From assembly GCA_049643885.1 (NCBI GenBank), contig JBARQV010000029.1, forward strand, positions 24,997-88,996: a stretch of 64,000 nucleotides of DNA. The letters run 5' to 3'. This document shows positions 2,106-56,640 of this stretch, piece after piece; positions within the stretch are counted from its first letter, which is position 1, and each line of letters starts with the position of its first letter. The notes beneath the pieces were generated by a model. The model did not search any database, had not been told where the DNA came from, and saw nothing but the letters and a program-made list of their open reading frames with translations. Position numbers and translations under genes: made by a program. Source of the stretch: Candidatus Omnitrophota bacterium (lineage in GTDB: Bacteria; Omnitrophota; Gorgyraeia; Tantalellales; Tantalellaceae).

Positions 2106-3701
2106 TCAGACTACGACCCTGACCTGCTTTACGCCATTTATATCTTTATACTGTAAAAGCTTTTTTATTACGCTCTTCGGGACCTCGCTGTCCACGTTCA
2201 GCAAGCTGATCGCCTGCCCCTTTTTCTTCTCCCTTCCGAAACTCATTTCGGCGATGTTGATATTATGCTTGCCCAAGATCGTCCCGATCTTACCCACGAC
2301 CCCGGGGGTGTCTTTATTTGACACTATCAGCATGTAACCCTCGGGGATGGCTTCCACGTAATACTTATCTATTTTGATTATCCTGGGTTCTTTATTGGCA
2401 AAAAGCGTTCCCATGATGAAATGCTTTTTCTTCCCGGTATCGAGCTCGACGCTTATCAGGTTCGCGAAATCGGTGATCTTTGAAGTCTTTTTCTCGATGA
2501 TCTTTATACCTCTTTCCTCCGCTATCAAAAGTGAGTTAACGTAATTTACCTGTTCCTCCAGGATCGGGTTGAAGATCCCCTTCATCAGCGCCCTGGTGAT
2601 AACAGCGACATCCACATCGGCGACCTCTCCTATGTAATTCACCTTTATGGTCTTTATGGGCTCGTCGACAAGCTGCGACTGGATAGAGCCCAGTCTTTCG
2701 GCCAGATTGACATAGGGCTGAATGGTCTCCACGGCTTCCGCTTCAACGGCCGGAACGTTCGCGGCATTGCGGTAACCCCTGCCTAGCAGAGCGTCAGACA
2801 CTGATCTGGCTATGTCTATGGCCACGTTGACCTGGGCTTCCTCTGTCGACGCTCCCAGGTGCGGCGTAGTAATGACGTTCTCCATCTTATAGACCGGGCT
2901 GTCGAGCGGAGGTTTGGCCTTCGTCTCGTAAACATCAAGCGCGGCCCCTGCAACTTTGCCCGACTTGATGTACTTGGCCAGGGCTTTTTCGTCCACGATC
3001 CCTCCCCTGGCGGCATTTACGATCCTGACCCCTGTTTTCATCTTCTGGAAGGCTTTTTCGTCGAGAAGGTGGCGGGTCTCTTCGGTAAGAGGCGTATGGA
3101 TCGTTATGAAATCTGACATTTTCAGCAAAGTATTAAAATCAACCGGCTCCGCGTTCAGGGATTTCGCTTTCTCCCCTGAAAGAAACGGGTCGTACGCGAC
3201 GACTTTCATCCCGAAGCTGAGAGCCCTTTTTGCGAATTCCGCGCCTATGCGGCCGAGCCCGATGATCCCCAGGACCTTGCCGTAAAGCTCGACTCCCATG
3301 AACTTTTTCCTGTCCCAATTTCCCTGTTTTACCGAATCGTTAGCTTGGGGAATGCTCCTTGCCAGGGACAGCATGAGGCTGAACGCGTGTTCAGCGGTCG
3401 ACATGGTATTGCCGGCAGGAGCGTTCATTACCACGATGCCTTTCTTGGACGCGGCTTTCACATCCACGTTATCAAGCCCTACACCGGCCCTTCCGACAAC
3501 CTTCAGCTTATCTGCCGCATCGATTATCTTCTTCGTGACCGTAGTTCCGCTGCGTATGATAAGAGCGTCGTATCTTTTTATTTTTTTTGCTAGTTCGCTT
3601 TCGGAAAGCTCGGATACTTCATCGACCTTGAACTTGTTATCTTTTAAGATAGCAACTCCTTCTTTCGATAATGGATCGCTTACCAGGACTTTGATGACCA
3701 T
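2106..3701 (-). CDS. serA: D-3-phosphoglycerate dehydrogenase with C-terminal ACT domain
   Basis: 531 aa with a 2-hydroxyacid dehydrogenase NAD-binding motif (GIIGLGRIG), a catalytic region and a C-terminal ACT region. Confidence 0.9.
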   Translation of the reverse strand: MVIKVLVSDPLSKEGVAILKDNKFKVDEVSELSESELAKKIKRYDALIIRSGTTVTKKIIDAADKLKVVGRAGVGLDNVDVKAASKKGIVVMNAPAGNTMSTAEHAFSLMLSLARSIPQANDSVKQGNWDRKKFMGVELYGKVLGIIGLGRIGAEFAKRALSFGMKVVAYDPFLSGEKAKSLNAEPVDFNTLLKMSDFITIHTPLTEETRHLLDEKAFQKMKTGVRIVNAARGGIVDEKALAKYIKSGKVAGAALDVYETKAKPPLDSPVYKMENVITTPHLGASTEEAQVNVAIDIARSVSDALLGRGYRNAANVPAVEAEAVETIQPYVNLAERLGSIQSQLVDEPIKTIKVNYIGEVADVDVAVITRALMKGIFNPILEEQVNYVNSLLIAEERGIKIIEKKTSKITDFANLISVELDTGKKKHFIMGTLFANKEPRIIKIDKYYVEAIPEGYMLIVSNKDTPGVVGKIGTILGKHNINIAEMSFGREKKKGQAISLLNVDSEVPKSVIKKLLQYKDINGVKQVRVVV

Positions 3702-5485: not shown

Positions 5486-6763
5486 CTAGTCTTTTTCTGT
5501 TACTGCCGCTTCTGAAAGCAAAAAATCAAGGGTCTTCTCTTCCCTGAGTTGTTCCCTTAAACCGTCTATCAGATCTTTTTCTTCGTAATATTTCTTCACG
5601 TCCTCGAATTTTTGCCCGTAAGCCCCAGCCAGAGATCTCAACCAGTTCTCGATCTCTTCCTCTCCAACGGATATTTTTTCTTCGTCCGCGATCCGGCCCA
5701 GTATGAAATACAGTTTGACTTTATTCTCGGCATCAGCCCGCAGGCTTTGTTCCAGTTTGCTCTTTTCCGACTCTATATTTTCGGGGGCGACCCCTTTCTG
5801 TGCCAATTCGTTCCCGGCCCTCTCGACAAGAACAGCAAGCTGCCTTTTGACCATGGATTCGGGAGCAGCAAAGTCATGGTTTTTGAGCAATTGTTCCATG
5901 ATCTGGTTCATCATGTTGACTTTCTCATGGTGTTCTTTTTTTCGCTTTAACTGGTCGCGGATCTCGCCCCGGACTTCATCCATATTGCTTTTTTCCATTT
6001 TCTTAGCCAGATCCTCGCCCACCTCGGGCAGTTTTTTCTGGCGCACCTCTTTGACCTCGACATTGAACGTGGCATCCTTACCGGCATACTTCTTGTCCGG
6101 ATAGTTTTCCGGAAGCTTAACATCTATATCCTTGCCGTCGCCTTTTTTCATGCCGCAAAGTTCTTCACCCAGCCCCAGCAAAGAAGATTCCTTATCGGCC
6201 TCGATCCACATGTTCATGTGTTTTTTGCTGATCGATACGCCGGCGACGAAGGCTTCCACGTCGCAGATCCCGAAATCGCCTTTCTCTATGGAGCTGTCTT
6301 TTTCGGTATATTCGGCGTGTATATTTCGCATATGTCCAAGCGCTTCCTCGACTTCCTTGTCGCTGACATCCATTTTCCGGCCTATGACCTTCAAACCCTT
6401 ATACTTGCGCAGCTTGATCTCCGGGAAAATATCCACCTTGGCTACGAAGGTCATGCCCACGGACGGATCCAGGGAAATGTCCGATACCTCCGGATAACTT
6501 ACAGTTGAAAGGTCATGTTCCGCCAGCGCTTGCTGATAAGCGTCAGGGATCAGGCGCTTTTTTGCCTCGTCCAAAGCTTCTTTCTCATACTTCTTCCGGA
6601 TAATGTCAAGCGGGGCCTTGCCTTCCCTGAAACCGTTTATCTTAGCATTTTTTCTTATCCCTTCCAGGGTCTCATTAAGAACTGTGCTTACTTCCTCGGA
6701 AGTAAGCACCACCTCCAGCTGTCTCGCCGTGCCTCCCAGTTTCTTTAACTTGCTTTTCATCAA
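5486..6763 (-). CDS. tig: Trigger factor
   Basis: 425 aa with N-terminal ribosome-binding, PPIase and C-terminal domains, in the classic tig-clpP arrangement. Confidence 0.9.
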
Positions 6764-6782: not shown

Positions 6783-7328
6783 TTAAAATTTGGGTTCGAT
6801 CAACCCGTAATTACCGTCGTTTTTCTTATACAGGACATTAACTTCTCCCGTATCAGCGTTTTTGAACATGACAAAAACCGCCTTTATGACATCCAGTTCC
6901 ATTTTTGCTTCTTCCGGCAGCATCGGTTTGGGAGCGAAAGCGCTCATCTTAATGATCACTCCTCCCTGATCCGGACTGCTCTCTTCGGATTCCCGGAAAC
7001 GGATGACCGGACCAATGATCCTGTCAAACACGGCCTTCCGCCTCCTGGACTGAAGCTTACCCCTTAATCTCCTTAACTGCTTTTTGACATTCTCTGCGGC
7101 ATTGTCGATAGAAGCGTAGATGTCCGGGGAACTTTCCCTGGCCACTATCCTTGTCTTTTTAAGGTGCAGGATAACTTCCGCTTCCTGCCTGATCTTCGCC
7201 TGTTCCAGTATGACCTCACAACTGTTTATCCGGCTGTAGATACGCCCCAGCTTATTCATCCTTTTATTTACATAATCTTTTAATGTGTCTGTCAGCTCAA
7301 TGTTTCTTCCCGTGATCGTAATTTCCAT
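6783..7328 (-). CDS. hpf: Ribosome hibernation promoting factor, long form
   Basis: 181 aa. The N-terminus MEITITGRNIELTDTLKDYV is the hallmark of RaiA/HPF, and a C-terminal dimerisation domain is present. Confidence 0.9.
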   Translation of the reverse strand: MEITITGRNIELTDTLKDYVNKRMNKLGRIYSRINSCEVILEQAKIRQEAEVILHLKKTRIVARESSPDIYASIDNAAENVKKQLRRLRGKLQSRRRKAVFDRIIGPVIRFRESEESSPDQGGVIIKMSAFAPKPMLPEEAKMELDVIKAVFVMFKNADTGEVNVLYKKNDGNYGLIEPKF

Positions 7329-7434: not shown

Positions 7435-8157
7435 TTACATAGAGAATCTCTCACCCAGATATATCTCTCGTGCCTTGGGATCGTTAATGAGCTCATCCCT
7501 TGTCCCGGCTATGAGTACCTGGCCCTCATACATTATATAGGCCCTGTCGGTTATGCTCAGGGTCTCCCTTACGTTATGGTCTGTCAGCAAGATCCCCAGG
7601 CCTATTTTCTTAAGGTCCTTTATCATTTCCTGGCAATCAAATACCGCGATCGGGTCGATCCCGCTGAACGGTTCGTCTAGCAAAATGAACATGGGGTTGG
7701 TCACCATCGACCTGGTGATCTCGAGCCTCCTTCTTTCCCCGCCCGACAGCGTATATGCTTTGTTCTTGCGCAGATGTGATATCTTGAGCTGGTTGAGCAG
7801 GATATCCAGCTGCCTCTTGCGCTCACTGCGCGGAAAATCCAGTGTCTCCATTACAGCCATGATATTCTCTTCCACTGTAAGCTTCCGGAAAATAGACGGT
7901 TCCTGGGACAGGTAACCTATCCCGGCACGGGCTCTCTGGTGTATCGGTAATTTAGTGATGTCTTTCTTATCGAATATTATGTGCCCTCTGTCCGGCCTTA
8001 CTATCCCTGTGACCATATAGAACGTAGTGGTCTTCCCAGCTCCATTCGGGCCTAAAAGACCGACGACTTCGCCTTTTCCCACGTTTATACTTACATCCCT
8101 TACTACTTTTCTGCCCCCGTATTCCTTGACCAGGTTCCTGGTTTCAAGTAAATGCAT
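7435..8157 (-). CDS. lptB: LPS export ABC transporter ATP-binding protein
   Basis: 240 aa with Walker A GPNGAGKTT and an ABC signature. A GAGGAGG RBS lies upstream. Confidence 0.9.
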   Translation of the reverse strand: MHLLETRNLVKEYGGRKVVRDVSINVGKGEVVGLLGPNGAGKTTTFYMVTGIVRPDRGHIIFDKKDITKLPIHQRARAGIGYLSQEPSIFRKLTVEENIMAVMETLDFPRSERKRQLDILLNQLKISHLRKNKAYTLSGGERRRLEITRSMVTNPMFILLDEPFSGIDPIAVFDCQEMIKDLKKIGLGILLTDHNVRETLSITDRAYIMYEGQVLIAGTRDELINDPKAREIYLGERFSM

Positions 8158-9035: not shown

Positions 9036-9919
9036 TTTTGCGTCTTCCACCTCCGGTGGACCCATACCCATTGTTCAGGATATTCTCTCACGTACTTTTC
9101 CAACAGACCCGTCCAGGCCTGGGTGTATTTCTTCACGTCCTCTTCCGTCCCGCTGCCGGCCGTGACATCTATAGGTTTTTCAACTACAAGCTTATGGGTG
9201 TCGTCTTTCTTTCTCACCACGAACACAGGAACTATCTTTGTCCTGGCCGCCATGGCCAGTTTTACCGGCGCCACCGGCGTGAACGCGGGCTTGCCAAAGA
9301 AATCCACGAATACGCCATCGACGCTTTCAACGTCCTGGTCGGGCACTATGCCGAGGATACTGCCATCCTTCAGGACTTTCAGCATCTTCCTGGGCGACTC
9401 GTCCCGATAGATGACCTTCGCGTCAAACCTGTGGCGCATCCTCGTTATGAATTTGTCGTATTTGTGGAAATATATCCTTCTCCCCACAAGTTTACCCGGA
9501 TAGCCCTTCCTCCTTAGATAAACGCCCAGGAGTTCCCAGTTCCCAAAATGGAATCCCAGGACCAGCGCGCCTTTCCCCTCGGCAAGAACACTATCCAGGT
9601 ATTCCAGCCCTTCATTTTCAGTCACAATATCATCCAGATCTTCAGGTTTCATCGAGTAAAGCTTTATCCACTCAGCACCGTTCTTCGCAAAGTTAGAGAA
9701 AACCTTTCTCGCTATTTTCACATTGGCTTCGTGATCATCGCTGAAAACTTCATCCAGATTAGATATGGCGATCTCACGGTACTTGCGAATGAACGCGAAC
9801 CCGGCTTTCCCGAAAAAATCCGCCATAGCCAGGCTTACTTTTAGCGGAATAAAGCTCATGAAAAAGAACAGGATCTTCAGCAAATAATAAACGTAATATC
9901 TCCTGTATTTTATCTTCAT
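9032..9919 (-). CDS. lpxL: Lipid A biosynthesis late (lauroyl/myristoyl) acyltransferase
   Basis: 295 aa with a C-terminal EQWVWVHRRWK motif typical of the HtrB/LpxL family and an N-terminal membrane anchor. Confidence 0.85.
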   Translation of the reverse strand: MKIKYRRYYVYYLLKILFFFMSFIPLKVSLAMADFFGKAGFAFIRKYREIAISNLDEVFSDDHEANVKIARKVFSNFAKNGAEWIKLYSMKPEDLDDIVTENEGLEYLDSVLAEGKGALVLGFHFGNWELLGVYLRRKGYPGKLVGRRIYFHKYDKFITRMRHRFDAKVIYRDESPRKMLKVLKDGSILGIVPDQDVESVDGVFVDFFGKPAFTPVAPVKLAMAARTKIVPVFVVRKKDDTHKLVVEKPIDVTAGSGTEEDVKKYTQAWTGLLEKYVREYPEQWVWVHRRWKTQK

Positions 9920-10308
9920 CCTCGACGATATTCAGCTTCCACCGATGTGGTTATGCCGCCTCTGACGTTAAAAATACCTTTTACTTTTATCCAGTGCGGC
10001 TTGCAGCTCTTTACCAGGTCATCAAGCATCCTGTTGACGACATGTTCATGAAAAATACCGATACTCCTGAAAGCGACAAGATATTCTTTAAAGGATTTTA
10101 ATTCAACGCATGAAGCGTCCGGCGAATATTCGATGAATATACGCGCGAAATCAGGGAGTCCGGTCTTCGGGCATATGCAGGTGAATTCGGGCGTGTCGAA
10201 TCTTACTACATAATCCTTGTCCTTATATTTATTCTCCCAGGTATCTATTTTAGGAAGCTTGATCTTCCTGATATTTTCCTGCAGTCCTTTGTAACTTTTC
10301 TTTTTCAT
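9916..10308 (-). CDS. queF: NADPH-dependent 7-cyano-7-deazaguanine (preQ0) reductase, type I
   Basis: EFTCICPKTGLPDFA motif. The start is probably MKKKSYKG at 10308, which is preceded by GGAGG (the ORF track extends to 10356). Confidence 0.9.
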   Translation of the reverse strand: MKKKSYKGLQENIRKIKLPKIDTWENKYKDKDYVVRFDTPEFTCICPKTGLPDFARIFIEYSPDASCVELKSFKEYLVAFRSIGIFHEHVVNRMLDDLVKSCKPHWIKVKGIFNVRGGITTSVEAEYRRG

Positions 10309-10322
10309 GCTTCCGCTTTCCT

Positions 10323-10370
10323 CCACACTCTCCCGAGTGTGGTATCCATTCCCCACACGGAGGGGTGGGG
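10323..10370. repeat. Bipartite hairpin element, family 3 copy a: a variable 8-bp stem hairpin followed by GTATCCATTCCCCAC-loop-GTGGGG.
   Basis: The same architecture and conserved GTATCCATTCCCC core appear at 23913-23960. Both copies sit a few nt upstream of a start codon and overlap its SD. Confidence 0.6.
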
Positions 10371-11057
10371 TTATTTGATCCCCAGATCCTTATGAACCTG
10401 TCCAAGAACGATGACATCCCTGGCGGTCTCTTTTTTTATATAATCCCTGAAATATCCCGTCATCTCTTCATCTGGTTCCCTGACTCGGCCATCGACCGGA
10501 GTAACCGGCTGCAAGACCACGGTGACCTTCCCTTTAAGACGCCCGATTATCGATCCCATCCGTTTCACGTCGTCCATGGTAGTGCTGTCGGTAATGACGG
10601 CTTTAGTTATCAGTTCCTTCCGCGACGCTATTTCGGCGAACCTTCGATGCTCGTCCCACAGGGCTCTATTGCCGGTCGAGGACGGGAGTTTAAAATCCAT
10701 GGCTACTACATCCACTTTGTCGACGAGTTGCTCCATCTCGTCCGGTAGCGACCCGTTGGTCTCCAGATAAACGGGTTTGGGCCTGTGGGCCTTATAAAGG
10801 GAAATAAAGCCCTCCAGGAACTCACGGTATAACAACGGTTCCCCGCCGGTGAGGGCCAGTTCACTGTAATCATCACCGAAATCCAGGACCCGGCTGAAAA
10901 GCCCCTCCCGGGTAAGCGACTTATAGCTTTCCAGGATGGTATCGCAAAAAACACAACTTAAGTTGCAGCCGAAAAACCTCACAAAGAGCTGACGGCTCCC
11001 CACATACGGGCCTTCACCCTGGCATGACAAAAAAATCTCAGAAACTTTAGCCTGCAT
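10371..11057 (-). CDS. queE: 7-carboxy-7-deazaguanine synthase (radical SAM)
   Basis: N-terminus FLSCQGEG with a CxxxCxxC-type cluster motif FGCNLSCVFCDT. Confidence 0.9.
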   Translation of the reverse strand: MQAKVSEIFLSCQGEGPYVGSRQLFVRFFGCNLSCVFCDTILESYKSLTREGLFSRVLDFGDDYSELALTGGEPLLYREFLEGFISLYKAHRPKPVYLETNGSLPDEMEQLVDKVDVVAMDFKLPSSTGNRALWDEHRRFAEIASRKELITKAVITDSTTMDDVKRMGSIIGRLKGKVTVVLQPVTPVDGRVREPDEEMTGYFRDYIKKETARDVIVLGQVHKDLGIK

Positions 11058-17752: not shown

Positions 17753-17776
17753 CATAAACTTAACATCCAGCATCCA

Positions 17777-17866
17777 GTGTGCGGGTCCTGTCGCTCAGTG
17801 CCCTGCGCGCCTCCGCGCCACTGGCTTGTGCGATGCTCGGACACTGTAGCGCCACCCGCCCCCACG
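17777..17866. repeat. GC-rich structured element, family 1 copy 1 (about 90 bp), in the 5' leader of a GT9 gene.
   Basis: About 90% identical to 19578-19665. It has an imperfect long dyad (GCGGGT...CAGTG/CACTG...ACCCGC) around an internal GCGCG-GAG-GCGCGC stem. Confidence 0.7.
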
Positions 17867-17873
17867 AATCCAA

Positions 17874-18583: not shown

Positions 18584-19558
18584 TTATCCCCCCAACAGCT
18601 CTTTCGCTGCTTTAAAAACTTCCTCGACAGTAATCCGACTTATGCATCCCTCGTCGGGGCCAATAGAACATAATGCCTTCCCGCAAGGACGGCATGATAG
18701 CAATGGTTTGATGACCTTGCTTTTCTCAGATAAAGGTCCGTACCTTTCTTCGTCAGAAGGTCCGAAAATAGCTACCGTTGCAACGTTGGCCATGCTGGCC
18801 ATATGCAGCGGGGCGCTGTCGTTAGTTATAACCAGGTCGCAGCGCCTCATGATCTCAAAAAGACTGCCCAGGGTCGTCCTGCAACAAAGATCCTGCACCT
18901 TACTTTTAACGGAACTTACCACCTTCCGGACAGTTTCCCTGTCATCCTCATTTCCGCAAACCAGAACATCGCAATCAAGTTCACTCACAAGCCTGTCCGC
19001 AAGAGCGGCGAACTTACCGGAATCCCATCTTTTAAGGTGGCTCTTGGCGCCGGGATTCAAAGTCACAGTTTTCTTTTTGCGTCCGGAAGATAAAACCTGG
19101 TCAGCGAAACGCCTGTCTTCGTCCAAAACGGGGAGAAAAAACCTTATCCTGGAAAAAGGCTCGATCCCGAGCCCCGCGAGTTTCGCAAGATGTTCCTTGC
19201 TTTTATGGCGTCTTCTATTTGAAAGATCGAAAATACCCGTCCTGAAACGGGCGCCGGAAAGATACGGGATAAGTGAATTTTTCAGATCGACCACCATATC
19301 GTATTTCTTACGCCGTATTTCAAGGATATTCTTCAATCTATCTGCTAATGATGAACGTTTTTTGTGCACTTTGACCTCGCGGACCTTGGGATGCGCTGCA
19401 AATATATCCCGTCCCGGGGAACCTGTGATAATGTCAACGCTTGCCCCGGGAAACTCATCACAAAGTTTCTCCAAAACCGGAGTAGTGAGCAGGATATCGC
19501 CGAGATTGCTCAGTGTAATGAATAGAATCGATTTCACGTTGTTTTTATCGGGTTTCAT
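18584..19558 (-). CDS. ADP-heptose:LPS heptosyltransferase family glycosyltransferase (GT9)
   Basis: GT9 fold. The start is probably MKPDKNNVKSILFI. The ORF-track N-terminus (to 19675) is read-through of repeat copy 2. Confidence 0.8.
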   Translation of the reverse strand: MKPDKNNVKSILFITLSNLGDILLTTPVLEKLCDEFPGASVDIITGSPGRDIFAAHPKVREVKVHKKRSSLADRLKNILEIRRKKYDMVVDLKNSLIPYLSGARFRTGIFDLSNRRRHKSKEHLAKLAGLGIEPFSRIRFFLPVLDEDRRFADQVLSSGRKKKTVTLNPGAKSHLKRWDSGKFAALADRLVSELDCDVLVCGNEDDRETVRKVVSSVKSKVQDLCCRTTLGSLFEIMRRCDLVITNDSAPLHMASMANVATVAIFGPSDEERYGPLSEKSKVIKPLLSCRPCGKALCSIGPDEGCISRITVEEVFKAAKELLGG

Positions 19559-19577
19559 GTCTAATCCAGTCTCAATT

Positions 19578-19665
19578 GGGCGGGGCCTGTCGCTCAGTGT
19601 CCTGCGCGCCTCCGCGCCACTGGCTTGTGCGGTGCTCGGACACTGCCGCGCCACCCGCCCCCCCC
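19578..19665. repeat. GC-rich structured element, family 1 copy 2, in the 5' leader of a second GT9 gene.
   Basis: About 90% identity to 17777-17866, including the flanking TTGGAT. Confidence 0.7.
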
Positions 19666-19682
19666 AATGATCCAACTACAAA

Positions 19683-20715: not shown

Positions 20716-21819
20716 CTATTTTGTAACTACTTTCTCATACACATTGATCGTCTTCCTCACGCTGTCTTCTATCGAAAATTCGCTCAACGCCTTTTTGCGC
20801 GCTTCCTGCCCGATCCGTTTCCGGAGCTGGTCGTCTTCCGCCAGTCTCATTATACCCCGGCTTAAAGCCTCCGGGTCCTTCGGCGGAACCAATATCCCGT
20901 CCTCTTCCGGAGTGATCAGTTCAACCGGTCCGCCGATACTACTGGCAACGCAAGCCCGGCCGGCAGCCATGGCTTCCATCAGCGATAGTCCCAGCCCCTC
21001 GGATACGGAAGGCAAGCAAAAAATATCCATAAGTAATAAAAATTTTCCCAGCGGCGCTTCTTTTCCACTGGCAAAAAATACATTATCGGAGACGCCTTCG
21101 CGCAAGACTTGCTCTTCCAGAGACGCTTTTTCAGGCCCCTCCCCCACGAGAAGAAGCTGCATCCGTGAATCCCTGTCCATCGCCTTTTTAAAAGCACTGA
21201 CAAGATAATTCAACCCCTTCACAGGGGAAAGCCGTCCGACCGCTCCCACCAGAAGAACTTCCTTTGACAACCCGATGTTCCTTAAAAGCCTGTCGTCTTT
21301 TTCGCCGATATCTGAATAACGGCCTGTTTCTACGCCGTTATATACCAGTTGGACCCTGTCGCCGGGAAGACGAAAATCCCCGATAAGATGCTTGCGCACG
21401 CTATCACTTATGGCTATCACTTTCCGTCCCCAGCACGGGAAAAGCTTTCTTCCCAGCCTGTGGTGTTTGAAAAAACCGTGGCATGTTGAGATAAAAGGAA
21501 CGCCGGTTTTACGCTCCACGAGGCAGCCAAGAACCTGCGCGACCCTGGTCTGCGCGTGGACAATATCGAACCCCTCCGCTTTCACCATTCGGGATAAAAG
21601 ATGAGAAGCCTTCCAGACCTTCAAGCCGAATTCAGACTTGGTCTTTATGTCTAGGGTCAGGTGGGGAATGATGTTATCCACTAATACCTTTTTCATGTCC
21701 CCGCCGCCGGATGCGACGGTTACATCCACTCCAGCCTTTTTCAGATACCTGGCCAGGCTCACGGTGTAAACGGCTATGCCGCCGGTATTCAAATGCGTGG
21801 TCAGAAGCAATACCTTCAT
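20716..21819 (-). CDS. Glycosyltransferase family 4 (RfaG/WaaG-like)
   Basis: 367 aa, GT4 GT-B fold, with an EGLGLSLMEAMAAG motif. Confidence 0.8.
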   Translation of the reverse strand: MKVLLLTTHLNTGGIAVYTVSLARYLKKAGVDVTVASGGGDMKKVLVDNIIPHLTLDIKTKSEFGLKVWKASHLLSRMVKAEGFDIVHAQTRVAQVLGCLVERKTGVPFISTCHGFFKHHRLGRKLFPCWGRKVIAISDSVRKHLIGDFRLPGDRVQLVYNGVETGRYSDIGEKDDRLLRNIGLSKEVLLVGAVGRLSPVKGLNYLVSAFKKAMDRDSRMQLLLVGEGPEKASLEEQVLREGVSDNVFFASGKEAPLGKFLLLMDIFCLPSVSEGLGLSLMEAMAAGRACVASSIGGPVELITPEEDGILVPPKDPEALSRGIMRLAEDDQLRKRIGQEARKKALSEFSIEDSVRKTINVYEKVVTK

Positions 21820-23909
21820 CTCATCACTTCCATTACCGCGTTAAAAACTTCCTGCGGCTCAACTGAACTTATACACTTCACTCCCTTGCGGCACACCGGC
21901 TTGTAACAGGGCGAGCACTTTATCTTTTTATATATGACCCTGCATTTTTTCGCCGGCGGGAGGTGCTTGTCAGGATCAGTCGGACCGAAAATGGCCACGA
22001 ACGGCGTCCCGGTCGCTATCGCGACATGCATGGGAGAACTGTCACCTGTCACCAGCGCGTTGCACCGTTTAACAAGACTCACCAGCCGCGCAATATTCGT
22101 CTTGCCCACGGCGTTGATGGGTTTGGCCGTGGTCATCTTCATGAATTCCTGCGCTTTCCTCTCATCGTCTTTTGTCCCGAGAAGGACGACCCGCGTCCCT
22201 TCCTTCTCGGCAAGAAGTTCTGTCAGCTCTACCATCTTTTCCGGTTCCCAGTTCTTCGTCTTCCACCTTCGACTGGCGGAAAGACTGAGGGCTACCAGCT
22301 TCTGGTCTTTTTTTAGCCAGTTATCTCTCAAGAAACTTTCCGCCCAGACCCCGCTTTTGCTGTCTTCCCATAACTCGAGATCATGTTCCAGGTTCATTAT
22401 GCCCAAAAGCCCCAAAACGCGGGCCTGATGTTTTATCGGTTCCACCGACTTATCAGGCAGGCTGATCTTATGATTCAAAAGAAAACTCAGCTTACGGTTA
22501 TCATACCCATATCTTCCGGGGATGCCGCTCAAAAAAGCCAGCAAATGGCTTTTCCGGTTATTCTGCAGATCTATGGAGATATCGAATTCTTCCGAGCACA
22601 ACCTTCTGGCCAGGGCCAGGAACCCGGGGCCCCGGTCCCGTCCCCTGAAATCACAGGTCAGAACATCGTCTATGTACGGACAATGATCGAGGACCTCCCT
22701 GAACCTGACATCTACCAGGACTTTTATCTCGGCTTTCTTGAATTTGTTCCTCATGGCTTTGAGCGAAGGAATACTCAGGATCACGTCTCCGAGGGCGCTT
22801 ATCTTGAACACAAGTATTCTCTTTGTCTCCAGGACCTGTCTATACGTCTCCAGGGTCATGTCCATTACTTTGGATAATGAAAAATTTTCCTCGACGCGTT
22901 TCCTGGCATTCTGGGCTATTTTCTGCATCAGCCCGGGATCATCCAGGTAACCCATGATCTTTTCCGCCATATCACTCGGGTTGCCTGGTTCGCATAAAAG
23001 GCCGGTAACGCCGTCATCAATGTTCTCCGCCGCGCCGCCGACCCGGGTAGCGACAACCGGGACTCCTCTGGCCATGGCTTCTATTATCGACCGGCCGAAT
23101 GCTTCCTGCTCCTTGTTCGCTGAAACAAGGATGTCGACTTCCTTAAGGACCTCTGCCACGTCTTTGCCGCTTTCAATGAACTTTACGTTCCCTTCAAGCG
23201 TAAAACGCCGTATGGCAAAGTCGATCTTCTTCATGTAATCACTGCCGGCAGAATACCGGTCCCCCATAAGTATTATTTCGACGTTGTTCTTCTTCCTTAA
23301 AACACGGGAAGCAGCCTTCAGGAAGTCAAGGTGCCCTTTCAGCGGGACAAAACGTGATATCATGGCTACCCGGAAAACCTTGTCTTTTCTGCTTGAGGGA
23401 GAGATGAAAGAATACTTTTCCAGGTCCACTCCTCTCGGAATGATCTTCATCTTCCCCGGCTGGACACCAAAATTATCTTTCATGTGCCGGGCCATCATTT
23501 CGCCGGCCACGATGACTACCCTGCCCCATCCCATCACCCGGCTGATAAGATGCTTCTTGTAATGCCCGTGCGCAGTGGTCACGAACTTCCTCCGCGTGGA
23601 ACGAGCGGCAAAATACCCGGTAAGGGCGGGAATCCTGCTCCTAGCATGGACTATATCGATATTCTCCCGCCTGATTATTCCGCGTAATTTAAAATAGCAA
23701 TAGACCATGGTGAAAGGATTCTTGCGGCCTACCGGCAGAATATACTGCCGCGCGCCGATGGCGGCAAGATCCCGTTCCAATCTTCCTCCCCCGGAAACGA
23801 CCACGGCCTTATGGCCGTTTAATGCGAGGTGCCTGGCGACTTCGACAGTGCTCTTCTCAACACCGCCGATATCCAGTTTTGGAACTAATTGTAATACGTT
23901 CATAGCCAT
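21816..23909 (-). CDS. Bifunctional glycosyltransferase: N-terminal GT4 domain fused to a C-terminal GT9 heptosyltransferase-like domain.
   Basis: 697 aa. Residues 1 to about 350 are GT4-like (EAFGRSIIEAMARGVPVV). Residues from about 355 to 697 are GT9-like (ILVFKISALGDVILSIP ... CSPCYKPVC). Confidence 0.75.
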   Translation of the reverse strand: MAMNVLQLVPKLDIGGVEKSTVEVARHLALNGHKAVVVSGGGRLERDLAAIGARQYILPVGRKNPFTMVYCYFKLRGIIRRENIDIVHARSRIPALTGYFAARSTRRKFVTTAHGHYKKHLISRVMGWGRVVIVAGEMMARHMKDNFGVQPGKMKIIPRGVDLEKYSFISPSSRKDKVFRVAMISRFVPLKGHLDFLKAASRVLRKKNNVEIILMGDRYSAGSDYMKKIDFAIRRFTLEGNVKFIESGKDVAEVLKEVDILVSANKEQEAFGRSIIEAMARGVPVVATRVGGAAENIDDGVTGLLCEPGNPSDMAEKIMGYLDDPGLMQKIAQNARKRVEENFSLSKVMDMTLETYRQVLETKRILVFKISALGDVILSIPSLKAMRNKFKKAEIKVLVDVRFREVLDHCPYIDDVLTCDFRGRDRGPGFLALARRLCSEEFDISIDLQNNRKSHLLAFLSGIPGRYGYDNRKLSFLLNHKISLPDKSVEPIKHQARVLGLLGIMNLEHDLELWEDSKSGVWAESFLRDNWLKKDQKLVALSLSASRRWKTKNWEPEKMVELTELLAEKEGTRVVLLGTKDDERKAQEFMKMTTAKPINAVGKTNIARLVSLVKRCNALVTGDSSPMHVAIATGTPFVAIFGPTDPDKHLPPAKKCRVIYKKIKCSPCYKPVCRKGVKCISSVEPQEVFNAVMEVMR

Positions 23910-23912
23910 CCT

Positions 23913-23960
23913 CTACAGGCTTACGCCTGTAGTATCCATTCCCCCCACGAAAGTGTGGGG
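23913..23960. repeat. Bipartite hairpin element, family 3 copy b: CTACAGGC-TTAC-GCCTGTAG followed by GTATCCATTCCCCCCAC-GAAAGT-GTGGGG.
   Basis: It shares the GTATCCATTCCCC core and the two-hairpin layout with 10323-10370, and sits directly upstream of the ATG of the GT4-GT9 gene. Confidence 0.6.
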
Positions 23961-25901
23961 TCAAAATAGTTTGTACATTTTTTCCAGAATACGTTTGTCG
24001 TCTTCCGGCAAAACGTGTTCGATCTTGCCATTAATATAATTTTCCGCCGCTTCGGGTATACGCTCGGGATCGACGACTTTAAGATACTTCTTCTTCTCAA
24101 GACCCCTGACAAACCTTTCGTACTTTGTCAGGCGGCTCTTTTTCTTGTCCGGCATGAACACCAGAACCGGCTTACCGGAAGAGACGGCTTCCGAGACCAT
24201 TGAAATACTCTCACCCGAAACAACTACCACGTCGCTGAAAGCAAGTATCTTTTCCACGGTGTGCTTGTCCGGGTCATCCTTACCGGAAACAAACTTTAGA
24301 CAACGGGGGTAACCTCCGAAAGTTTCCTTGATAACAGCCTCGGCCGCGTCAGGTGTTCTCCTGGAGGTCGTCACGTAAAAAAACCCGTCCACCCGTTCGC
24401 CTGCTCCTTTGATGCCAGAGACCACCGAGCGCATAAGCCCTTCCCCGAAACTGAAATACTGATTGTCTCCTCCGAGCAGCACCCCTATGCGCGCTCCCTC
24501 CTTCGCTTCTTGCTCTTGCCCGGACCGGGTGCCCCATGAAGCGATCTCATCGGGCTCAATGGAATTCGGAGCAAGGTCCGTCATAATGACATTCTCTCCC
24601 TTGATCTTCCTGGCAAGACAATCGTGCCTGGGGATCACTACAAGGTCGAATTTCCTGCGGCTCCAGGCCCCGGGATCCAGGACAGCAAGGTTACGGGCGT
24701 TGTTTTCTATCTTCAAGAACAGATTCACTCCGGACAAGGTCGAACCGCAGCTGATAACGACATCCGCGTAACGGCCCACCGCCTCCTCGTAGCTTTTTCT
24801 TTCCAGAAACCAGGAAAGACGTCTTGCCTCGCCCTGGCAATCAAAGGTAAAAAGCGGATTCAAAAGATTGAACACGGCCTTGGCGAACTTGTTCTTGAAT
24901 CTGATCTCGACGATATCCACCTGGGTCTGGTCGGGTGAAAAACCTTCGTTTTCGCGATAACGCTTAAGCTGCTTTACCACCGCGAGAGACTGTTTCAGGT
25001 GCCCTTTCTTTCCGTCATCGAGGACCAGTATCTTTTTCACTGGGGTAAGCTTCCACTTCTTATGCATCCAGAACCATTGCTCCGGATGTTCTCTGACGTG
25101 CTTTTCAAGAAGACGGTGGTATTCTTCCATATAAGGCACAATGTCTTCTTTTTTGCCTATTATCATCGGTTTTTCCAGGATTATCTTTTGATATGGGCCT
25201 TTGATCCTGTGAATAAAAGCCGGTACGACCCAGGCCCCGCTTGACTGGGCGAAACGGAAAGGACCCACGGCAGTTGACGCGGGACGGTCGAAAAGTTCCA
25301 AAAGTTTACCGTTTTGGCCTGCATTCTGGTCTCCCAATAACCCCACGCCGCCTCCATTTCGCAGGATACGGAAAACATTTTTTATATCCATACCTTTCCG
25401 AATAACAAAATTGCCTTTTGACTCGCGCAATAAGTTAAAAAGCTCATTAAGGCGTTTCATCTTCTGATCCCTTGCCACAAGATGAAGTGGATACCCGTTC
25501 ATCACGCTTTCCACGCACATCAGCTCCCAGTTACCAAAATGCGCAGAAATTAGCAGCATCCCGTTCGGGTTTTTTGCCGCCTGATCAATATACTCCCTGT
25601 TTTGAGTTTCGATGTATTTGTCAAGATAAGCTTTATCCACTTTCGTCATTGAAATCAATTCAATCAAAGTCTGGCCCGCGTTCCTGTAAACTTCCTTTGT
25701 AAGGCGTTTTATTTCCAGCGGGCTTTTCCCCCGCCAAAAAGCAGCCTTGAGATTGGCATAAGTTATTCTTTTCCTTTTGCCGTTCAGGTAATACGCAAGA
25801 TTTCCGAGGTTGCGTCCAACCCAAAGGTTAAACCTCATCGGCATCAGATGAAAAATTTTATTAGCCCCTATCGCCAGATATGACGCTATTAAGTCTATCA
25901 A
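23961..25901 (-). CDS. Lipid A late acyltransferase (LpxL/HtrB family, N-terminal about 300 aa) fused to an uncharacterised C-terminal domain of about 340 aa, possibly a GT-B-like ELM1/DUF1022-like domain.
   Basis: The N-terminal half has the LpxL hallmarks HFGNWE and EQWFWMHKKWK. The C-terminal half begins ILVLDDGKKGHLKQSLAVV, has Rossmann-like segments (VVVVSGESISMVSEAVSSGKPVLVF) and no P-loop. The ELM1-like assignment is from memory, so its confidence is moderate. Confidence 0.65.
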   Translation of the reverse strand: MIDLIASYLAIGANKIFHLMPMRFNLWVGRNLGNLAYYLNGKRKRITYANLKAAFWRGKSPLEIKRLTKEVYRNAGQTLIELISMTKVDKAYLDKYIETQNREYIDQAAKNPNGMLLISAHFGNWELMCVESVMNGYPLHLVARDQKMKRLNELFNLLRESKGNFVIRKGMDIKNVFRILRNGGGVGLLGDQNAGQNGKLLELFDRPASTAVGPFRFAQSSGAWVVPAFIHRIKGPYQKIILEKPMIIGKKEDIVPYMEEYHRLLEKHVREHPEQWFWMHKKWKLTPVKKILVLDDGKKGHLKQSLAVVKQLKRYRENEGFSPDQTQVDIVEIRFKNKFAKAVFNLLNPLFTFDCQGEARRLSWFLERKSYEEAVGRYADVVISCGSTLSGVNLFLKIENNARNLAVLDPGAWSRRKFDLVVIPRHDCLARKIKGENVIMTDLAPNSIEPDEIASWGTRSGQEQEAKEGARIGVLLGGDNQYFSFGEGLMRSVVSGIKGAGERVDGFFYVTTSRRTPDAAEAVIKETFGGYPRCLKFVSGKDDPDKHTVEKILAFSDVVVVSGESISMVSEAVSSGKPVLVFMPDKKKSRLTKYERFVRGLEKKKYLKVVDPERIPEAAENYINGKIEHVLPEDDKRILEKMYKLF

Positions 25902-28184: not shown

Positions 28185-28192
28185 GTTTTATT

Positions 28193-28231
28193 TGATCCCG
28201 GATCCCGCTTTTGGCGGGTCCGGGATGACAT
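28193..28231. repeat. Palindromic hairpin element, family 2 copy D: TGATCCCGGATCCCGC-TTTTG-GCGGGTCCGGGATGACAT.
   Basis: The conserved termini GATCCCGG / CCGGGATGACAT recur at five or more sites. The inner stem varies with compensatory changes. Confidence 0.7.
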
Positions 28232-28264
28232 ATTTTTATTTTTCGACGAATTATGTGATCCTTC

Positions 28265-35695: not shown

Positions 35696-35840
35696 ATGTC
35701 ATCCCGGACGAGCCCGGAAATAATATGTCATCCCGGAATCGCGCCAAAGGCGCGATATCCGGGACCAAGTAAAATTATTATTTGATCCCCGCTTTCGCGG
35801 GGATGACATACTTCTAAATCGGCGAATTCCGGGATGACAT
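35696..35840. repeat. Composite palindromic element, family 2 copy A (about 145 bp), with four GTCATCCCGG/CCGGGATGACAT termini and nested hairpins.
   Basis: It shares ATCCGGGACCAAGTAAAATTATTAT(T/G)TGATCCC with copy B at 45279-45375, and fills the pilD-aroE intergenic gap up to the aroE stop. Confidence 0.7.
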
Positions 35841-41783: not shown

Positions 41784-42923
41784 TCATTTGTAAATGCGGG
41801 GGACTCTGTCCGTTATGGACGATACGATCTCATAAGGTATGGTACCGGCAAGTCTTGCGACTTTCTCTACAGGGACATAAGACTTGCCCTGCCTTCCGAT
41901 CAACACCACTTCATCGCCTATCTTGACGTCTTTGACATGCCCTACGTCCAGGAGCGCCTGGTCCATGGTGACCACCCCTACTACCTTAACATGCTTACCC
42001 TTCACCAGGGCTTCGGCTTTATTCGAAAGTATGCGTCCATAACCGTCGGCATAGCCGATCGGGATAGTGGCGATCTTTGTATCTTTCCGGGTAATATGTG
42101 TTCTCCCGTAACTTATCGATCTGCCCGCCGGCGTGTCTTTGAGATAGACTATCCTGGTCTTAAGGTTCATTACCGGTTTGAGCTTGAACTTCATCCGGAA
42201 ACTTTCTTTCGGATATATACCATAAATAAGTATCCCCGGCCTTACCAGGTTCAGGTGCGATCCTTTCCAGTCGACTACCGCGATACTGTTAGCTGCGTGT
42301 TTATGTTTGACCCGGATGTCCTCTTTTTCCAGTTTTTCGATAATTTTTTCAAAATGATTGATCTGTGAACGGGTAAAGGATTTATCCCTGCCGGCGGAAG
42401 AAAAATGCGTATAAATACCTTCCAGCTCTATCGCTTTTTTCCCGCTGACTTTCTTTATAAATTCAAGAGCTTCCTCGTGCCATATACCTATCCGTCCCAT
42501 TCCGGTATCGATCTTTATATGAACTTTCGGACGTCTTTTTAACTTTTTGGCTATGGCCATAAGGTCCTTTAGCAACCTCTCATCGGCTAGCGTAAGTGTG
42601 ATCCCGCGCTTCACGGCCGCTTCGGCTTCGTCTTTAAGCACCGACCCCATGGCCAGTATGGGAACTTTTATGCCTGAAGCCCGCAGCTTAAGCGCTTCAT
42701 CGACTGTAGCTACCCCGAGGTAAGTTATCCCGTTCTCGACAAGGACCTTGCTTACCCGGCATATACCATGACCGTAAGCGTTAGCTTTGACTACCGCCAT
42801 TATCCCAACGTCCCCGCTCAACAGCTCACGGATACGGTCCAGGTTATAGCTGATCGCCTTCAGATCTATTTCCGCCCACGTAGGCCTGTAACTTCCGTTC
42901 TTCATATCCATTACCCATTCCAT
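41784..42923 (-). CDS. alr: Alanine racemase
   Basis: 379 aa with PLP-lysine motif AVVKANAYGHG. The true start may be 12 to 18 nt inside, at MDMKNG. Confidence 0.9.
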   Translation of the reverse strand: MEWVMDMKNGSYRPTWAEIDLKAISYNLDRIRELLSGDVGIMAVVKANAYGHGICRVSKVLVENGITYLGVATVDEALKLRASGIKVPILAMGSVLKDEAEAAVKRGITLTLADERLLKDLMAIAKKLKRRPKVHIKIDTGMGRIGIWHEEALEFIKKVSGKKAIELEGIYTHFSSAGRDKSFTRSQINHFEKIIEKLEKEDIRVKHKHAANSIAVVDWKGSHLNLVRPGILIYGIYPKESFRMKFKLKPVMNLKTRIVYLKDTPAGRSISYGRTHITRKDTKIATIPIGYADGYGRILSNKAEALVKGKHVKVVGVVTMDQALLDVGHVKDVKIGDEVVLIGRQGKSYVPVEKVARLAGTIPYEIVSSITDRVPRIYK

Positions 42924-42924
42924 T

Positions 42925-43067
42925 GTGCGGGTCCTGTCGCGAGGTGTCCTGCGCGCATCCGCATTTCATTTGTGCTGTACCCGGGTGCAAGCTATACAGT
43001 GCAGTATATTCCCTACCAGGGCCCCTCCGCCCGGTGTGGATCCTCCCTGTACGGGAACATACTGCAC
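42925..43067. repeat. Family 1 copy 3 in the alr leader: the first 39 bp or so match copies 1 and 2 (GTGCGGGTCCTGTCGC.AGGTGTCCTGCGCGC.TCCGC), followed by a unique highly structured segment.
   Basis: Shared core as stated. The unique part has inverted repeats GTGCAGTATATTCCC / GGGAACATACTGCAC and CTGTA...TACAG. Confidence 0.55.
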
Positions 43068-44250: not shown

Positions 44251-44264
44251 ATCAATTTGGATGT

Positions 44265-44345
44265 ATGTCATCCCCGCGAAAGCGGGGATCACATAATAAT
44301 CTTACTTGATCCCGGATCCCGCCTGAGGCGGGTCCGGGATGACAT
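44265..44345. repeat. Family 2 element copy C: ATGTCATCCCCGCGAAAGCGGGGATCACAT ... TGATCCCGGATCCCGC-CTGAG-GCGGGTCCGGGATGACAT.
   Basis: Two hairpin modules with the conserved termini, in the tsaE-thiL intergenic region. Confidence 0.7.
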
Positions 44346-44368
44346 ATTTTCATTTCCTTCCAACTTCC

Positions 44369-45278: not shown

Positions 45279-45375
45279 GATGTCATCCCGGACGAGCCCG
45301 AAGGGCTCGATCCGGGACCAAGTAAAATTATTATGTGATCCCGGATCTCGGCCTACGGCCTCGCCCGGGATGACA
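45279..45375. repeat. Family 2 composite element, copy B (about 97 bp).
   Basis: ATGTCATCCCGGACGAGCCC-GAA-GGGCTCGATCCGGGACCAAGTAAAATTATTATGTGATCCCGGATCTCGGCCTACGGCCTCGCCCGGGATGACAT. It overlaps the mtnA 3' end and the thiL ORF-track start. Confidence 0.7.
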
Positions 45376-55938: not shown

Positions 55939-56625
55939 CTAACTTCCAATATCCAATATCGCCTCAGCCAGAGCCAAATCCTCAGGTACCGTCACCTTGA
56001 TATTCTTCTTGTCACCCGGAACTATGCGGACTTCCGCACCCAGACGTTCCACAAAACTGGAGTCATCAGTCGCATCCGACTCCTCAAACCTTTCATAAGC
56101 CTTTCTGATGATCCCGTACCTGAACGCCTGAGGGGTCTGGGCTTCCCAGAGAGCACTCCTGTCAACGGTCCCTTCGATAATACCTCCGTTTGCCACTTTC
56201 TTTACCGTAGATGTACAGGGAATACCCAATATAGCGGCCCCGGACCTGCGGGCCTCTTCCACCACTGACCGTATCGATTTTTCCGTCAAGAAAGGACGTG
56301 CCCCGTCGTGTATCAGGATGATATCGTCATCAGCGGCCTTTATTTTTTTCAGGCCGTTGACAACGGACTTTGTCCTTGTCGCACCGCCGGGAACTATACC
56401 AGTGACCTTTTTCAACCCGTATTTATCGACCGCTTGCTGCGCTTCCCGGATATATTTTTCTTTGACGACCAGGATCACGTCATCGATAAGGCCGGACTTC
56501 TCCAGCGATGACAAAGCGTAAAAAATAAGCGGCCTGTTCTTAAGTTCTAAAAAGGGCTTATCGTCCCTCTTGTTAGACATTCTCCGACCGGAACCCGCTG
56601 AGGGGATTATAGCTCTGACTCTCAT
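55939..56625 (-). CDS. ispD: 2-C-methyl-D-erythritol 4-phosphate cytidylyltransferase
   Basis: 228 aa with IIPSAGSGRRM. Confidence 0.9.
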   Translation of the reverse strand: MRVRAIIPSAGSGRRMSNKRDDKPFLELKNRPLIFYALSSLEKSGLIDDVILVVKEKYIREAQQAVDKYGLKKVTGIVPGGATRTKSVVNGLKKIKAADDDIILIHDGARPFLTEKSIRSVVEEARRSGAAILGIPCTSTVKKVANGGIIEGTVDRSALWEAQTPQAFRYGIIRKAYERFEESDATDDSSFVERLGAEVRIVPGDKKNIKVTVPEDLALAEAILDIGS

Positions 56626-56640
56626 ATCATCGACCTGTTA

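Follow-up and report, generated by a model that had tools for sequence, protein, structure and literature searches.

Repetitive extragenic palindromic (REP) sequences and their composite forms, REPIN and BIME, comprise palindromes of about 20 nucleotides (nt) that are paired in inverted orientation across a short conserved spacer (PMC3733652, PMC3116915, PMC5581495), a REPIN being composed of two inverted REPs (PMC3116915) and REP dimers being described as well (PMC3733652). These hairpins can fold separately or as one long hairpin, are extragenic and transcribed, lie mostly just downstream of coding regions in operons, and are tied to a relative of the Y1/HUH transposases, termed RAYT, which is fixed at one locus across related species. 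An unpaired GTAG or CGTC tag at the palindrome end serves as the criterion for a REP (PMC3733652), and REP families have previously been reported in the PVC group (PMC3733652, PMC3116915, PMC5581495). TnpA acts on single-stranded DNA hairpins at the ends of IS200/IS605 insertion sequences (IS), and RAYTs are thought to do so with REPs (PMC6006769, PMC5581495), while the TnpA-Y1 subclass 1.2 of Quentin et al. (2018) contains close relatives of the IS200 transposases whose behaviour is not that of an insertion sequence (PMC6006769). The present analysis concerns a 48-nt element which occurs twice, at 10323–10370 and 23913–23960, in a 64,000-nt stretch from a Candidatus Omnitrophota bacterium (assembly GCA_049643885.1, contig JBARQV010000029.1, positions 24,997–88,996; hereafter the window), and which is provisionally identified, with a probability of roughly 0.7, as a miniature non-autonomous mobile element of the REPIN/PATE kind originating from an IS200/IS605-type tnpA gene.

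Both copies in the window share the same minus-strand layout, namely a stop codon, hairpin P1, the linker AAUGGAUA, hairpin P2 with a GNRA loop, AGGA and a start codon, and are located at the cistron junctions queE/queF (element 1) and LpxL-fusion/GT4-GT9 (element 2), the genes being identified by Pfam. They align without gaps (53 nt at 77% identity in the repeat finder), all differences between their P2 stems are compensatory, and the window holds exactly two instances of the 13-mer GTATCCATTCCCC. A covariance model (R2) trained solely on copies from other genomes, with the window copies left out, gives scores of 73.5 and 72.9 bits for elements 1 and 2 (rough E-values near 1e-15), the next best sense-strand score in the window being 12.5 bits. 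The predicted folds of the two 48-mers have energies of -24.2 and -25.3 kcal/mol, with z values against shuffled sequences of -2.6 for element 1 and -5.4 for element 2. No terminator-like site is present on the minus (sense) strand at either element, P2 being followed by AGGA and not by a U-tract, and Rfam returns no match at gathering score in the window and only chance-level matches at E ≤10 around both elements. The AGGA tail is the sole Shine-Dalgarno (SD)-like sequence upstream of queF and of the glycosyltransferase (GT) gene. The 48-nt features are confirmed, and the first-pass annotation, which had described two 48-bp elements of common layout at these two junctions, with two hairpins, a conserved single-stranded core, a P2 3' arm running into the SD sequence and no U-tract, was correct in each of these respects.

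The element belongs to a family that extends well beyond the window. A scan with the 17-mer GGGGAATGGATACYACA, covering one genome per species, retrieved 103 stretches, which is about chance expectation, but about 26 of them contain both hairpins, and all of these are from metagenome-assembled genomes (MAGs) of Phycisphaerae, Sedimentisphaerales, Planctomycetota, Omnitrophota or Tritonobacter, several of which hold more than one copy. A metagenome scan added about 29 further copies, and the family now comprises about 60 copies with 32 distinct 48-mers, which is at variance with the chance local duplication that had been considered for the two window copies. The consensus is CCCCACAC-UUAC-GUGUGGGG AAUGGAUA CCACACAC-GUGA-GUGUGUGG AGG, where P1 and P2 are typically 20-nt palindromes with 8-bp stems and 4-nt loops. 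In both helices 99% of the cells are paired, three of the eight P2 pairs show compensatory changes (e.g. C-G to U-A in 12/36 and A-U to G-C in 11/36 sequences), and the P2 loop is of GNRA type in 29 of the 32 distinct copies. The family copies score 71–88 bits on the sense strand and 20–41 bits on the reverse strand. Insertion in the IS200/IS605 family takes place 3' of a fixed tetra- or pentanucleotide and does not duplicate the target. In the present family, the nucleotide before P1 is a near-invariant A (≥90%), and TAA or TGA directly precedes P1 in nine of 15 representative Omnitrophota-type junctions. REP systems comprise tens to hundreds of copies per genome; copy density of the present element is two per 64 kb in the window and four per 19.5 kb in contig Ga0209515_10000045 (locus L130), with 4–6 exact 17-mer matches per representative MAG. 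Seven viral contigs contain the 17-mer and none of them the element (at most 21.6 bits). A literature search with the sequence returned primers only, and searches on repeats of Omnitrophota returned no description of the element family. Two variant copies in L130 (9995–10054 and 11376–11435) have a palindromic linker, AATTATAAT(T/A), in place of AATGGATA; each is oriented antisense to the operon around it and lacks the SD-like tail.

The origin of the family was traced with tblastn, using IS200 and IS608 TnpA sequences as queries against all element-bearing loci, which gave matches in L096, L132 and L143 at the site of a 'split' copy of the element. As these query sequences were approximate, the family assignment is based on Pfam, NCBIfam and PDB matches. 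The tnpA open reading frame (ORF) of L096 (2817–3179) encodes 120 amino acids and lies, in the same orientation, between the genes for V-ATPase subunits E and C. Its product matches Pfam Y1_Tnp (PF01797) with 100 bits and the NCBIfam IS200/IS605 transposase model NF033573 with 86.8 bits (cut-off 55), while its score of 30.6 bits with the RAYT model NF047646 does not reach the cut-off of 80. Residues 4–115 align with IS608 TnpA (2a6m), where DHVH occupies the position of the HUH motif and VRRY-V-REQ aligns with the helix that holds the catalytic tyrosine in IS608. The codons AAA-ACC-CCA-CAC-TTA-CGT-GTG-GGG-AAT (K-T-P-H-L-R-V-G-N) of tnpA are equivalent to P1 and the start of the linker, and AGG-ATA-CCA-CAC-ACG-TGA (R-I-P-H-T-stop) to the rest of the linker, the P2 5' arm and the loop; the approximately 85–96 nt separating P1 and P2 in the intact gene, encoding the helix of the catalytic tyrosine, are deleted in the mini-element. 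Compared with the tnpA 3' end, the canonical Phycisphaerae element is identical at 26/26 and 29/29 positions in two segments separated by an 85-nt gap, and window element 1 at 25/29 and 26/29 positions; window element 2 matches an Omnitrophica tnpA (L157) at 22/24 and 23/28 positions. These alignments establish, at the level of sequence comparison, that the element descends from the tnpA 3' end and that AAUGGAUA is the deletion joint.

Three different deletion joints are found in the family. The canonical one joins AATG to GATAC; the second (L006:7195–7262) retains CAG..AAAAAG and has a P2 matching an L149-type gene at 24/24 positions; and the third, in L130, joins AATTATA to ATTCTAC and comes from an L157-type gene. 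The three joints are independent, and the retention of P1 and P2 in every derivative points to both as the parts mattering for propagation. The protein alignment contains no extra residues at P1, and the hairpins therefore belong to the gene and are not insertions into it. The tnpA subfamily has 68 cluster representatives, mostly of about 120 amino acids, with conserved TPHLRVGN and a C-terminal IPHT/M, and the DNA of an Omnitrophica-annotated member contains P1 together with an Omnitrophota-type P2, CUACACAC-GUAA-GUGUGUAG, the loop of which includes the stop codon. Intact tnpA cistrons of 120–122 amino acids are present at L096:2817–3179, L132:~6235–6576, L143:~2700–3036 and L149:2501–2869, always on the sense strand of housekeeping operons and 15–32 nt from the neighbouring gene on either side, L096, L132 and L143 being from Phycisphaerae-type genomes. 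The entire tnpA-bearing insert, a sense cistron, measures about 390–400 nt. The locus is constant in the three related genomes L096, L132 and L143, and another member (P0260) is found at the single locus oppD-tnpA-oppF in 17 contigs; by analogy, tnpA appears to behave like a resident gene, recalling RAYTs and the non-IS subclass 1.2. At L132:6565–6689, right before the start of the V-ATPase C subunit, the tnpA 3' module is duplicated in tandem (...ACAGAAAAGGATAC-P2-AGGACAA). L157:7340–7650 consists of two tandem units of about 220 nt, each with a tnpA fragment containing P1 (CTATTGGAG..CCCCACACTTACGTGTGGGGAATG..) followed by unrelated GC-rich sequence, and these units have no Rfam match.

In 50 unique contexts, the flanking genes are nearly always on the strand of the canonical element, which begins 0–23 nt after a stop codon and ends 3–54 nt before the next start codon. 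Omnitrophota-type copies fill the whole spacer, abut the stop codon in six of 12 cases and have AGGA 5–10 nt before the start, whereas in the Phycisphaerae the SD sequence and start codon lie 14–54 nt beyond P2. The Phycisphaerae contain the element at nearly every junction of the V-type ATPase operon (subunits E, C, A, B and D) and also upstream of trpD, pyrB, hisI and other genes, while downstream genes in the Omnitrophota include asd, accB, dapB, an iscS-like gene and a glycosyltransferase gene. These genes have no pathway in common, and the element is therefore not a metabolite-specific switch.

Comparison with close relatives gives the state of both window junctions without the element. 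In the four closest available relatives (QueF 78–84% identical), the end of queE and the start of queF share 4 nt (ATGA) or 1 nt, and the LpxL-ELM1/GT junction reads TGA-TC-ATG, with a 2-nt spacer, in L148 (73% identical) and contains a run of TAGGTTA heptamers, not the element, in L147 (75% identical). The covariance model detected no copy of the element over 80 kb from these relatives. As both junctions lack it there, the window lineage has gained blocks of 62 and 57 nt, each made up of the 48-nt element and a tail with AGGA, and each fitting precisely between the stop and start codons; a lineage-specific insertion at both window junctions is evident from this comparison. The first-pass annotation had proposed a comparison with relatives, and the nearest ones lack the element at both sites, where the genes overlap or nearly touch. 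Its description of anatomy and location stands, but a regulator proper to queF or to the GT gene does not, given the relatives without the element, the unrelated downstream genes and the tnpA origin. In other Omnitrophota, different short repeats occur at the same or neighbouring cistron junctions, namely TAGGTGT/TAGGTTA heptamers and AGCTGTAAGCTATAAGCT tandems at L147:1238–1282 and L109:4634–4724, 5744–5833 and 6910–6940, and cistron junctions of Omnitrophota seem to collect such repeats.

As a mobile element, the family would be propagated by a Y1 transposase acting in trans, by analogy with IS200/IS605 elements, on hairpins formed in single-stranded DNA, P2 corresponding roughly to P1 in inverted orientation, which is the arrangement of a REP doublet. 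Copies would survive chiefly where they are harmless, i.e. between cistrons, and each would be transcribed in the operon mRNA, where it is predicted to fold into two stable hairpins, with the AGGA tail now probably serving as the ribosome-binding site of the downstream gene. Insertion has replaced the ATGA overlap or the 2-nt spacer by a structured spacer of 57–62 nt, which would entail loss of ATGA coupling, a hairpin behind the stop codon and a 5' hairpin near the SD sequence; effects on the host are likely to be by-products, possibly exapted. Altered coupling, impaired termination at the stop codon, attenuation, RNA processing and protection of 3' or 5' ends are all plausible consequences of the insertions.

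In the Phycisphaerae copies, 17 of the 20 positions of P2 (counted by eye) agree with the reverse complement of P1, the two-hairpin fold and the single long hairpin have energies of -28.8 and -27.3 kcal/mol, respectively, in these copies, and the loop centres of P1 and P2 are complementary in 36 of 36 distinct sequences. The element shares with REP-like repeats the paired palindromes and their short spacer, the alternative folds, the transcribed extragenic position downstream of coding regions, and the association with a transposase relative at a fixed locus. It differs from them in lacking an unpaired GTAG or CGTC tag, GUAG being just the paired end of the Omnitrophota P2 (GUGG in the Phycisphaerae), in measuring only 48 nt with an 8-nt spacer, in always being sense with an SD-like tail when canonical, and in being common to two phyla. 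It also differs from REP-RAYT systems, as its associated protein is an IS200/IS605 TnpA by score and its hairpins form part of the coding sequence at the 3' end of the transposase gene, instead of flanking it. The likeness to IS200/IS605 elements and their derivatives without an ORF, the palindrome-associated transposable elements or PATEs (PMC7290912, PMC6006769), consists in a parent that is a bona fide Y1_Tnp protein with HUH and Tyr motifs, in the retention of two hairpins of about 20 nt with loss of the ORF by internal deletion, and in the absence of a target-site duplication at the Omnitrophota copies (permutation P = 0.76). In IS608-type elements, however, the two end hairpins share one strand and flank the ORF on the left and right, whereas the final 125 nt of the gene supply both hairpins of the present element, whose loops are mutually inverted, P2 being at the right end of the tnpA-bearing insert and P1 internal. 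Subclass 1.2 is similar by description, with its short core, low copy number, lack of typical terminal IS200 hairpins and a Y motif to which a conserved C-terminal signature is joined, given as Y---Q--HH (PMC6006769) and reading Y-[IV]-R-x-Q-K-x-I-P-H-[TM] in the tnpA product of this family, but it was reported mostly from Cyanobacteria and Bacteroidetes and with no REP association (PMC6006769).

Several observations weigh against a purely mobile origin and transposase-driven spread. The 64-kb window contains no tnpA of this subfamily by tblastn (best E = 8.5), and the 15–32 nt upstream of the intact tnpA genes contain no left-end hairpin. Canonical copies occupy about 27 distinct junctions, and every one of them has the orientation of the genes around it. 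Between orthologous junctions of the Phycisphaerae, identity is 94–100% for the element and 62–82% for neighbouring third codon positions, the slower evolution of the element having P values as low as 3e-9. Base 3 of the P1 loop shows perfect covariation with base 2 of the P2 loop (A-U 25, C-G 11, none unpaired), UUAC being combined with GUGA or GUAA and UUCC with GGAA or GGGA. Sense bias, slow evolution and loop covariation suggest that selection, on the RNA or in situ, operates in addition to selfish spread, and these observations may reflect RNA selection, constraints from transposase recognition on both strands, or copy correction. IS608 and ISDra2 insert strand-specifically into the lagging-strand template, and for genes running with replication the sense bias could, by analogy, arise in this way; the two L130 variants, which are antisense in the same operon as a sense canonical copy, speak against such an account.

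Because of the same three observations, an exapted RNA function is kept as the main rival, according to which the element would be a dedicated or exapted cis-acting RNA module of polycistronic mRNAs. In such a module, P1 behind the stop codon and P2 before the SD sequence would set translation, AAUGGAUA would be the recognition or cleavage site of an endonuclease, and after the cut the upstream cistron would have its 3' end shielded by P1 and the downstream cistron its 5' end by P2. This proposal is close to that of the first-pass annotation, is compatible with a mobile origin, and is considered possible but clearly unlikely as the primary explanation. Beyond the three observations, it draws on the stable folds, on the P2 pairing kept through double changes and the GNRA loops, and on the half of the Omnitrophota-type copies that adjoin a stop codon. 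In E. coli, REPs act as 3' stabilisers and a REP within 15 nt of a stop codon lowers upstream translation, and the RNase III sites of phage T7 are intercistronic processing stem-loops. The element resembles such intercistronic stem-loops in lying between cistrons, with a stable hairpin right after the stop codon and no U-tract, but its 8-bp hairpins are too short for canonical RNase III sites. The closest relatives manage without the element at the same junctions, with overlapping genes, the downstream genes have no common function, and in the Phycisphaerae P2 does not touch the SD sequence or start codon, which lie further on. Moreover, descent from tnpA codons accounts for the sequence and for its 'conserved core', the two L130 variants are antisense to their operon, and insertion into the lagging-strand template would likewise give a sense bias for genes transcribed in the direction of replication.

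A combination of the two readings is a speculative suggestion, with odds clearly against it, in which the transposase would be a domesticated, single-locus IS200-like enzyme and its 48-nt offspring exapted 'stop, hairpin, hairpin, SD' cassettes under purifying selection, which reset expression at the junctions. The P1 and P2 tetraloops would then touch through their co-varying central bases, and AAUGGAUA might be recognised by a conserved factor, for instance an endonuclease.

Far less probable is an operator for CsrA or another RNA-binding protein, in which the GGA of the linker (AUGGAU) and that of the SD sequence GGAGGA, about 26 nt apart and bridged by P2, would be bound together to repress translation. 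The presence of two GGA motifs, one of them over the SD sequence, is in keeping with this, as is the nearly isoenergetic long hairpin of the Phycisphaerae copies, which has AAUGGAUA as its loop, and a CsrB model gives a weak match at element 1 (12.9 bits, gathering score 71). Element 2, however, has no CsrB-like match. In the window copies the two-hairpin form (-23.8 and -24.3 kcal/mol) is strongly favoured over the long hairpin (-15.5 and -1.6 kcal/mol), and the first GGA lies in the linker between the helices and not in a hairpin loop. The linker is already explained by tnpA codons, and conservation of a 48-nt block as a unit is atypical for CsrA sites.

It is equally improbable that the element is a miniature inverted-repeat transposable element of the DDE type, whose 8-bp terminal inverted repeats would be the outer arms CCCCACAC...GUGUGUGG, recognised by an unrelated transposase that generates a target-site duplication. 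The outer arms are indeed inverted repeats, and the 10-nt flanks of the Phycisphaerae copies are more similar within loci than across loci (mean 4.6 and 3.9 matches, P = 0.019), with one perfect direct repeat, AGGAAAGAAA, at L096:7412–7421 and 7470–7479 around one copy. This flank similarity is weak, though, purine-rich flanks are present in all loci, and no such similarity is found at the Omnitrophota copies; a target-site duplication is rejected as a feature of the family on these grounds. In addition, a Y1 transposase gene contains the two halves of the element. A small riboswitch or self-cleaving ribozyme, such as a preQ1 sensor, is the least credible candidate and is rejected, since the compact two-helix form with its invariant junction, GNRA loop and co-varying loop centres, and the one copy upstream of queF, are set against the absence of any Rfam family at threshold in the window or of anything relevant at E ≤10, the presence of other copies before genes for V-ATPase subunits, trpD, pyrB, hisI, asd, accB, dapB and glycosyltransferases, and the queF genes of relatives without the element.

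Further candidates and one line of evidence were discarded. A leader mini-ORF starting at the AUG in AAUGGAUAC stops at or next to the downstream starts in the window, but ranges from 8 to 219 codons across 26 copies and is sometimes in frame with the gene, and there is therefore no consistent peptide or stop position. A pairing relay between the P1 3' arm and the P2 5' arm is possible in element 1 and in the Phycisphaerae copies but not in element 2, and is thus not general. An intrinsic terminator is excluded by the lack of a sense-strand U-tract or terminator-like site. The count of G-U against A-C mismatches (15 and 5) was not used as proof of RNA selection, because it is confounded by search patterns that fixed the G/U-rich arm.

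If of mobile origin, the element is an example of a tiny transposase-derived palindrome which splits two translationally coupled genes and is still tolerated, the insert supplying a stop-adjacent hairpin and a new ribosome-binding site. The analysis connects a repeat family with no earlier description, from uncultured bacteria of the PVC group (Omnitrophota and Phycisphaerae), to its parent gene, and this parent is unusual in having the hairpins in the coding 3' end of an IS200-type tnpA that is a cistron of V-ATPase and opp operons. For annotation, caution is indicated, as structured-RNA signals with covariation and GNRA loops can stem from mobile DNA. Should the host indeed select the copies, they would be natural intercistronic expression cassettes.

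Element 1 occupies 10370–10323 on the minus strand, between the TAA of the QueE-like radical-SAM gene (10371–11057, minus strand; TAA at 10373–10371, 0 nt to P1; Pfam) and queF. Its P1 (10370–10351; CCCCAC-CCCUCCGU-GUGGGG) is homologous to the tnpA codons T-P-H-L-R-V-G and has just 6 bp and a loop of 8 nt, which corrects the earlier anatomy; in a 90-nt context, folding predicts competing pairing with the end of queE. The linker AAUGGAUA (10350–10343) is invariant and single-stranded and contains the tnpA deletion joint of AAT (Asn) and AGG-ATA (Arg-Ile), and P2 (10342–10323; CCACACUC-GGGA-GAGUGUGG) has 8 bp and a GNRA loop. The tail AGGAAAGCGGAAGC (10322–10309) begins with the SD-like AGGA at 10322–10319, which is part of GGAGGA, the first GG being common with P2, and lies 10 nt before the queF AUG (10308–10306). 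As this tail is missing in the relatives, it arrived with the insertion. The downstream queF (9916–10308, minus strand; Pfam) encodes a preQ0 reductase of 130 amino acids, and the queE-queF spacer is identical in five other contigs of the species of the window. On the plus strand, 10351–10380, i.e. P1 of element 1 read antisense followed by TTATTTGATC, scores as terminator-like.

Element 2 occupies 23960–23913 on the minus strand, between the LpxL-ELM1 fusion gene (23961–25901, minus strand; TGA at 23963–23961, 0 nt to P1; Pfam) and the GT4-GT9 gene. Its P1 block (23960–23941) consists of CCCCAC-ACUUUC-GUGGGG plus GG, and the invariant linker AAUGGAUA (23940–23933) is followed by P2 (23932–23913; CUACAGGC-GUAA-GCCUGUAG), which has 8 bp and a GNRA loop and is of the Omnitrophota type, as in the Omnitrophica tnpA of L157. 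The tail AGGAUGGCU (23912–23904) has the SD-like AGGA at 23912–23909, 5 nt before the AUG at 23903–23901. The downstream gene (21816–23903, minus strand; Pfam) encodes a GT4-GT9 fusion glycosyltransferase, which is heptosyltransferase II-like, and has two in-frame AUGs, at 23909 (the ORF-finder start) and 23903. The latter is probably the true start, because the resulting N-terminus MNVLQLVPKL matches MNILQLVPKL in relative L148.

The window contains further repeats. Intergenic palindromes of the form ATGTCATCCCGGA...TCCGGGATGACAT, together with CCCCGC-TTTC-GCGGGG hairpins, are located at 28188–28241, 35696–35800, 44264–44355 and 45280–45350 and are unrelated to the element. Nine 21-nt units form a tandem array at 56605–56877. 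A direct repeat of 62–105 nt is present in three copies (17755–17869, 19554–19668 and 42901–42962) with 76–89% identity, and a weak 12-bit match of the covariance model at 42881–42935 is accounted for by the third copy of this repeat family.

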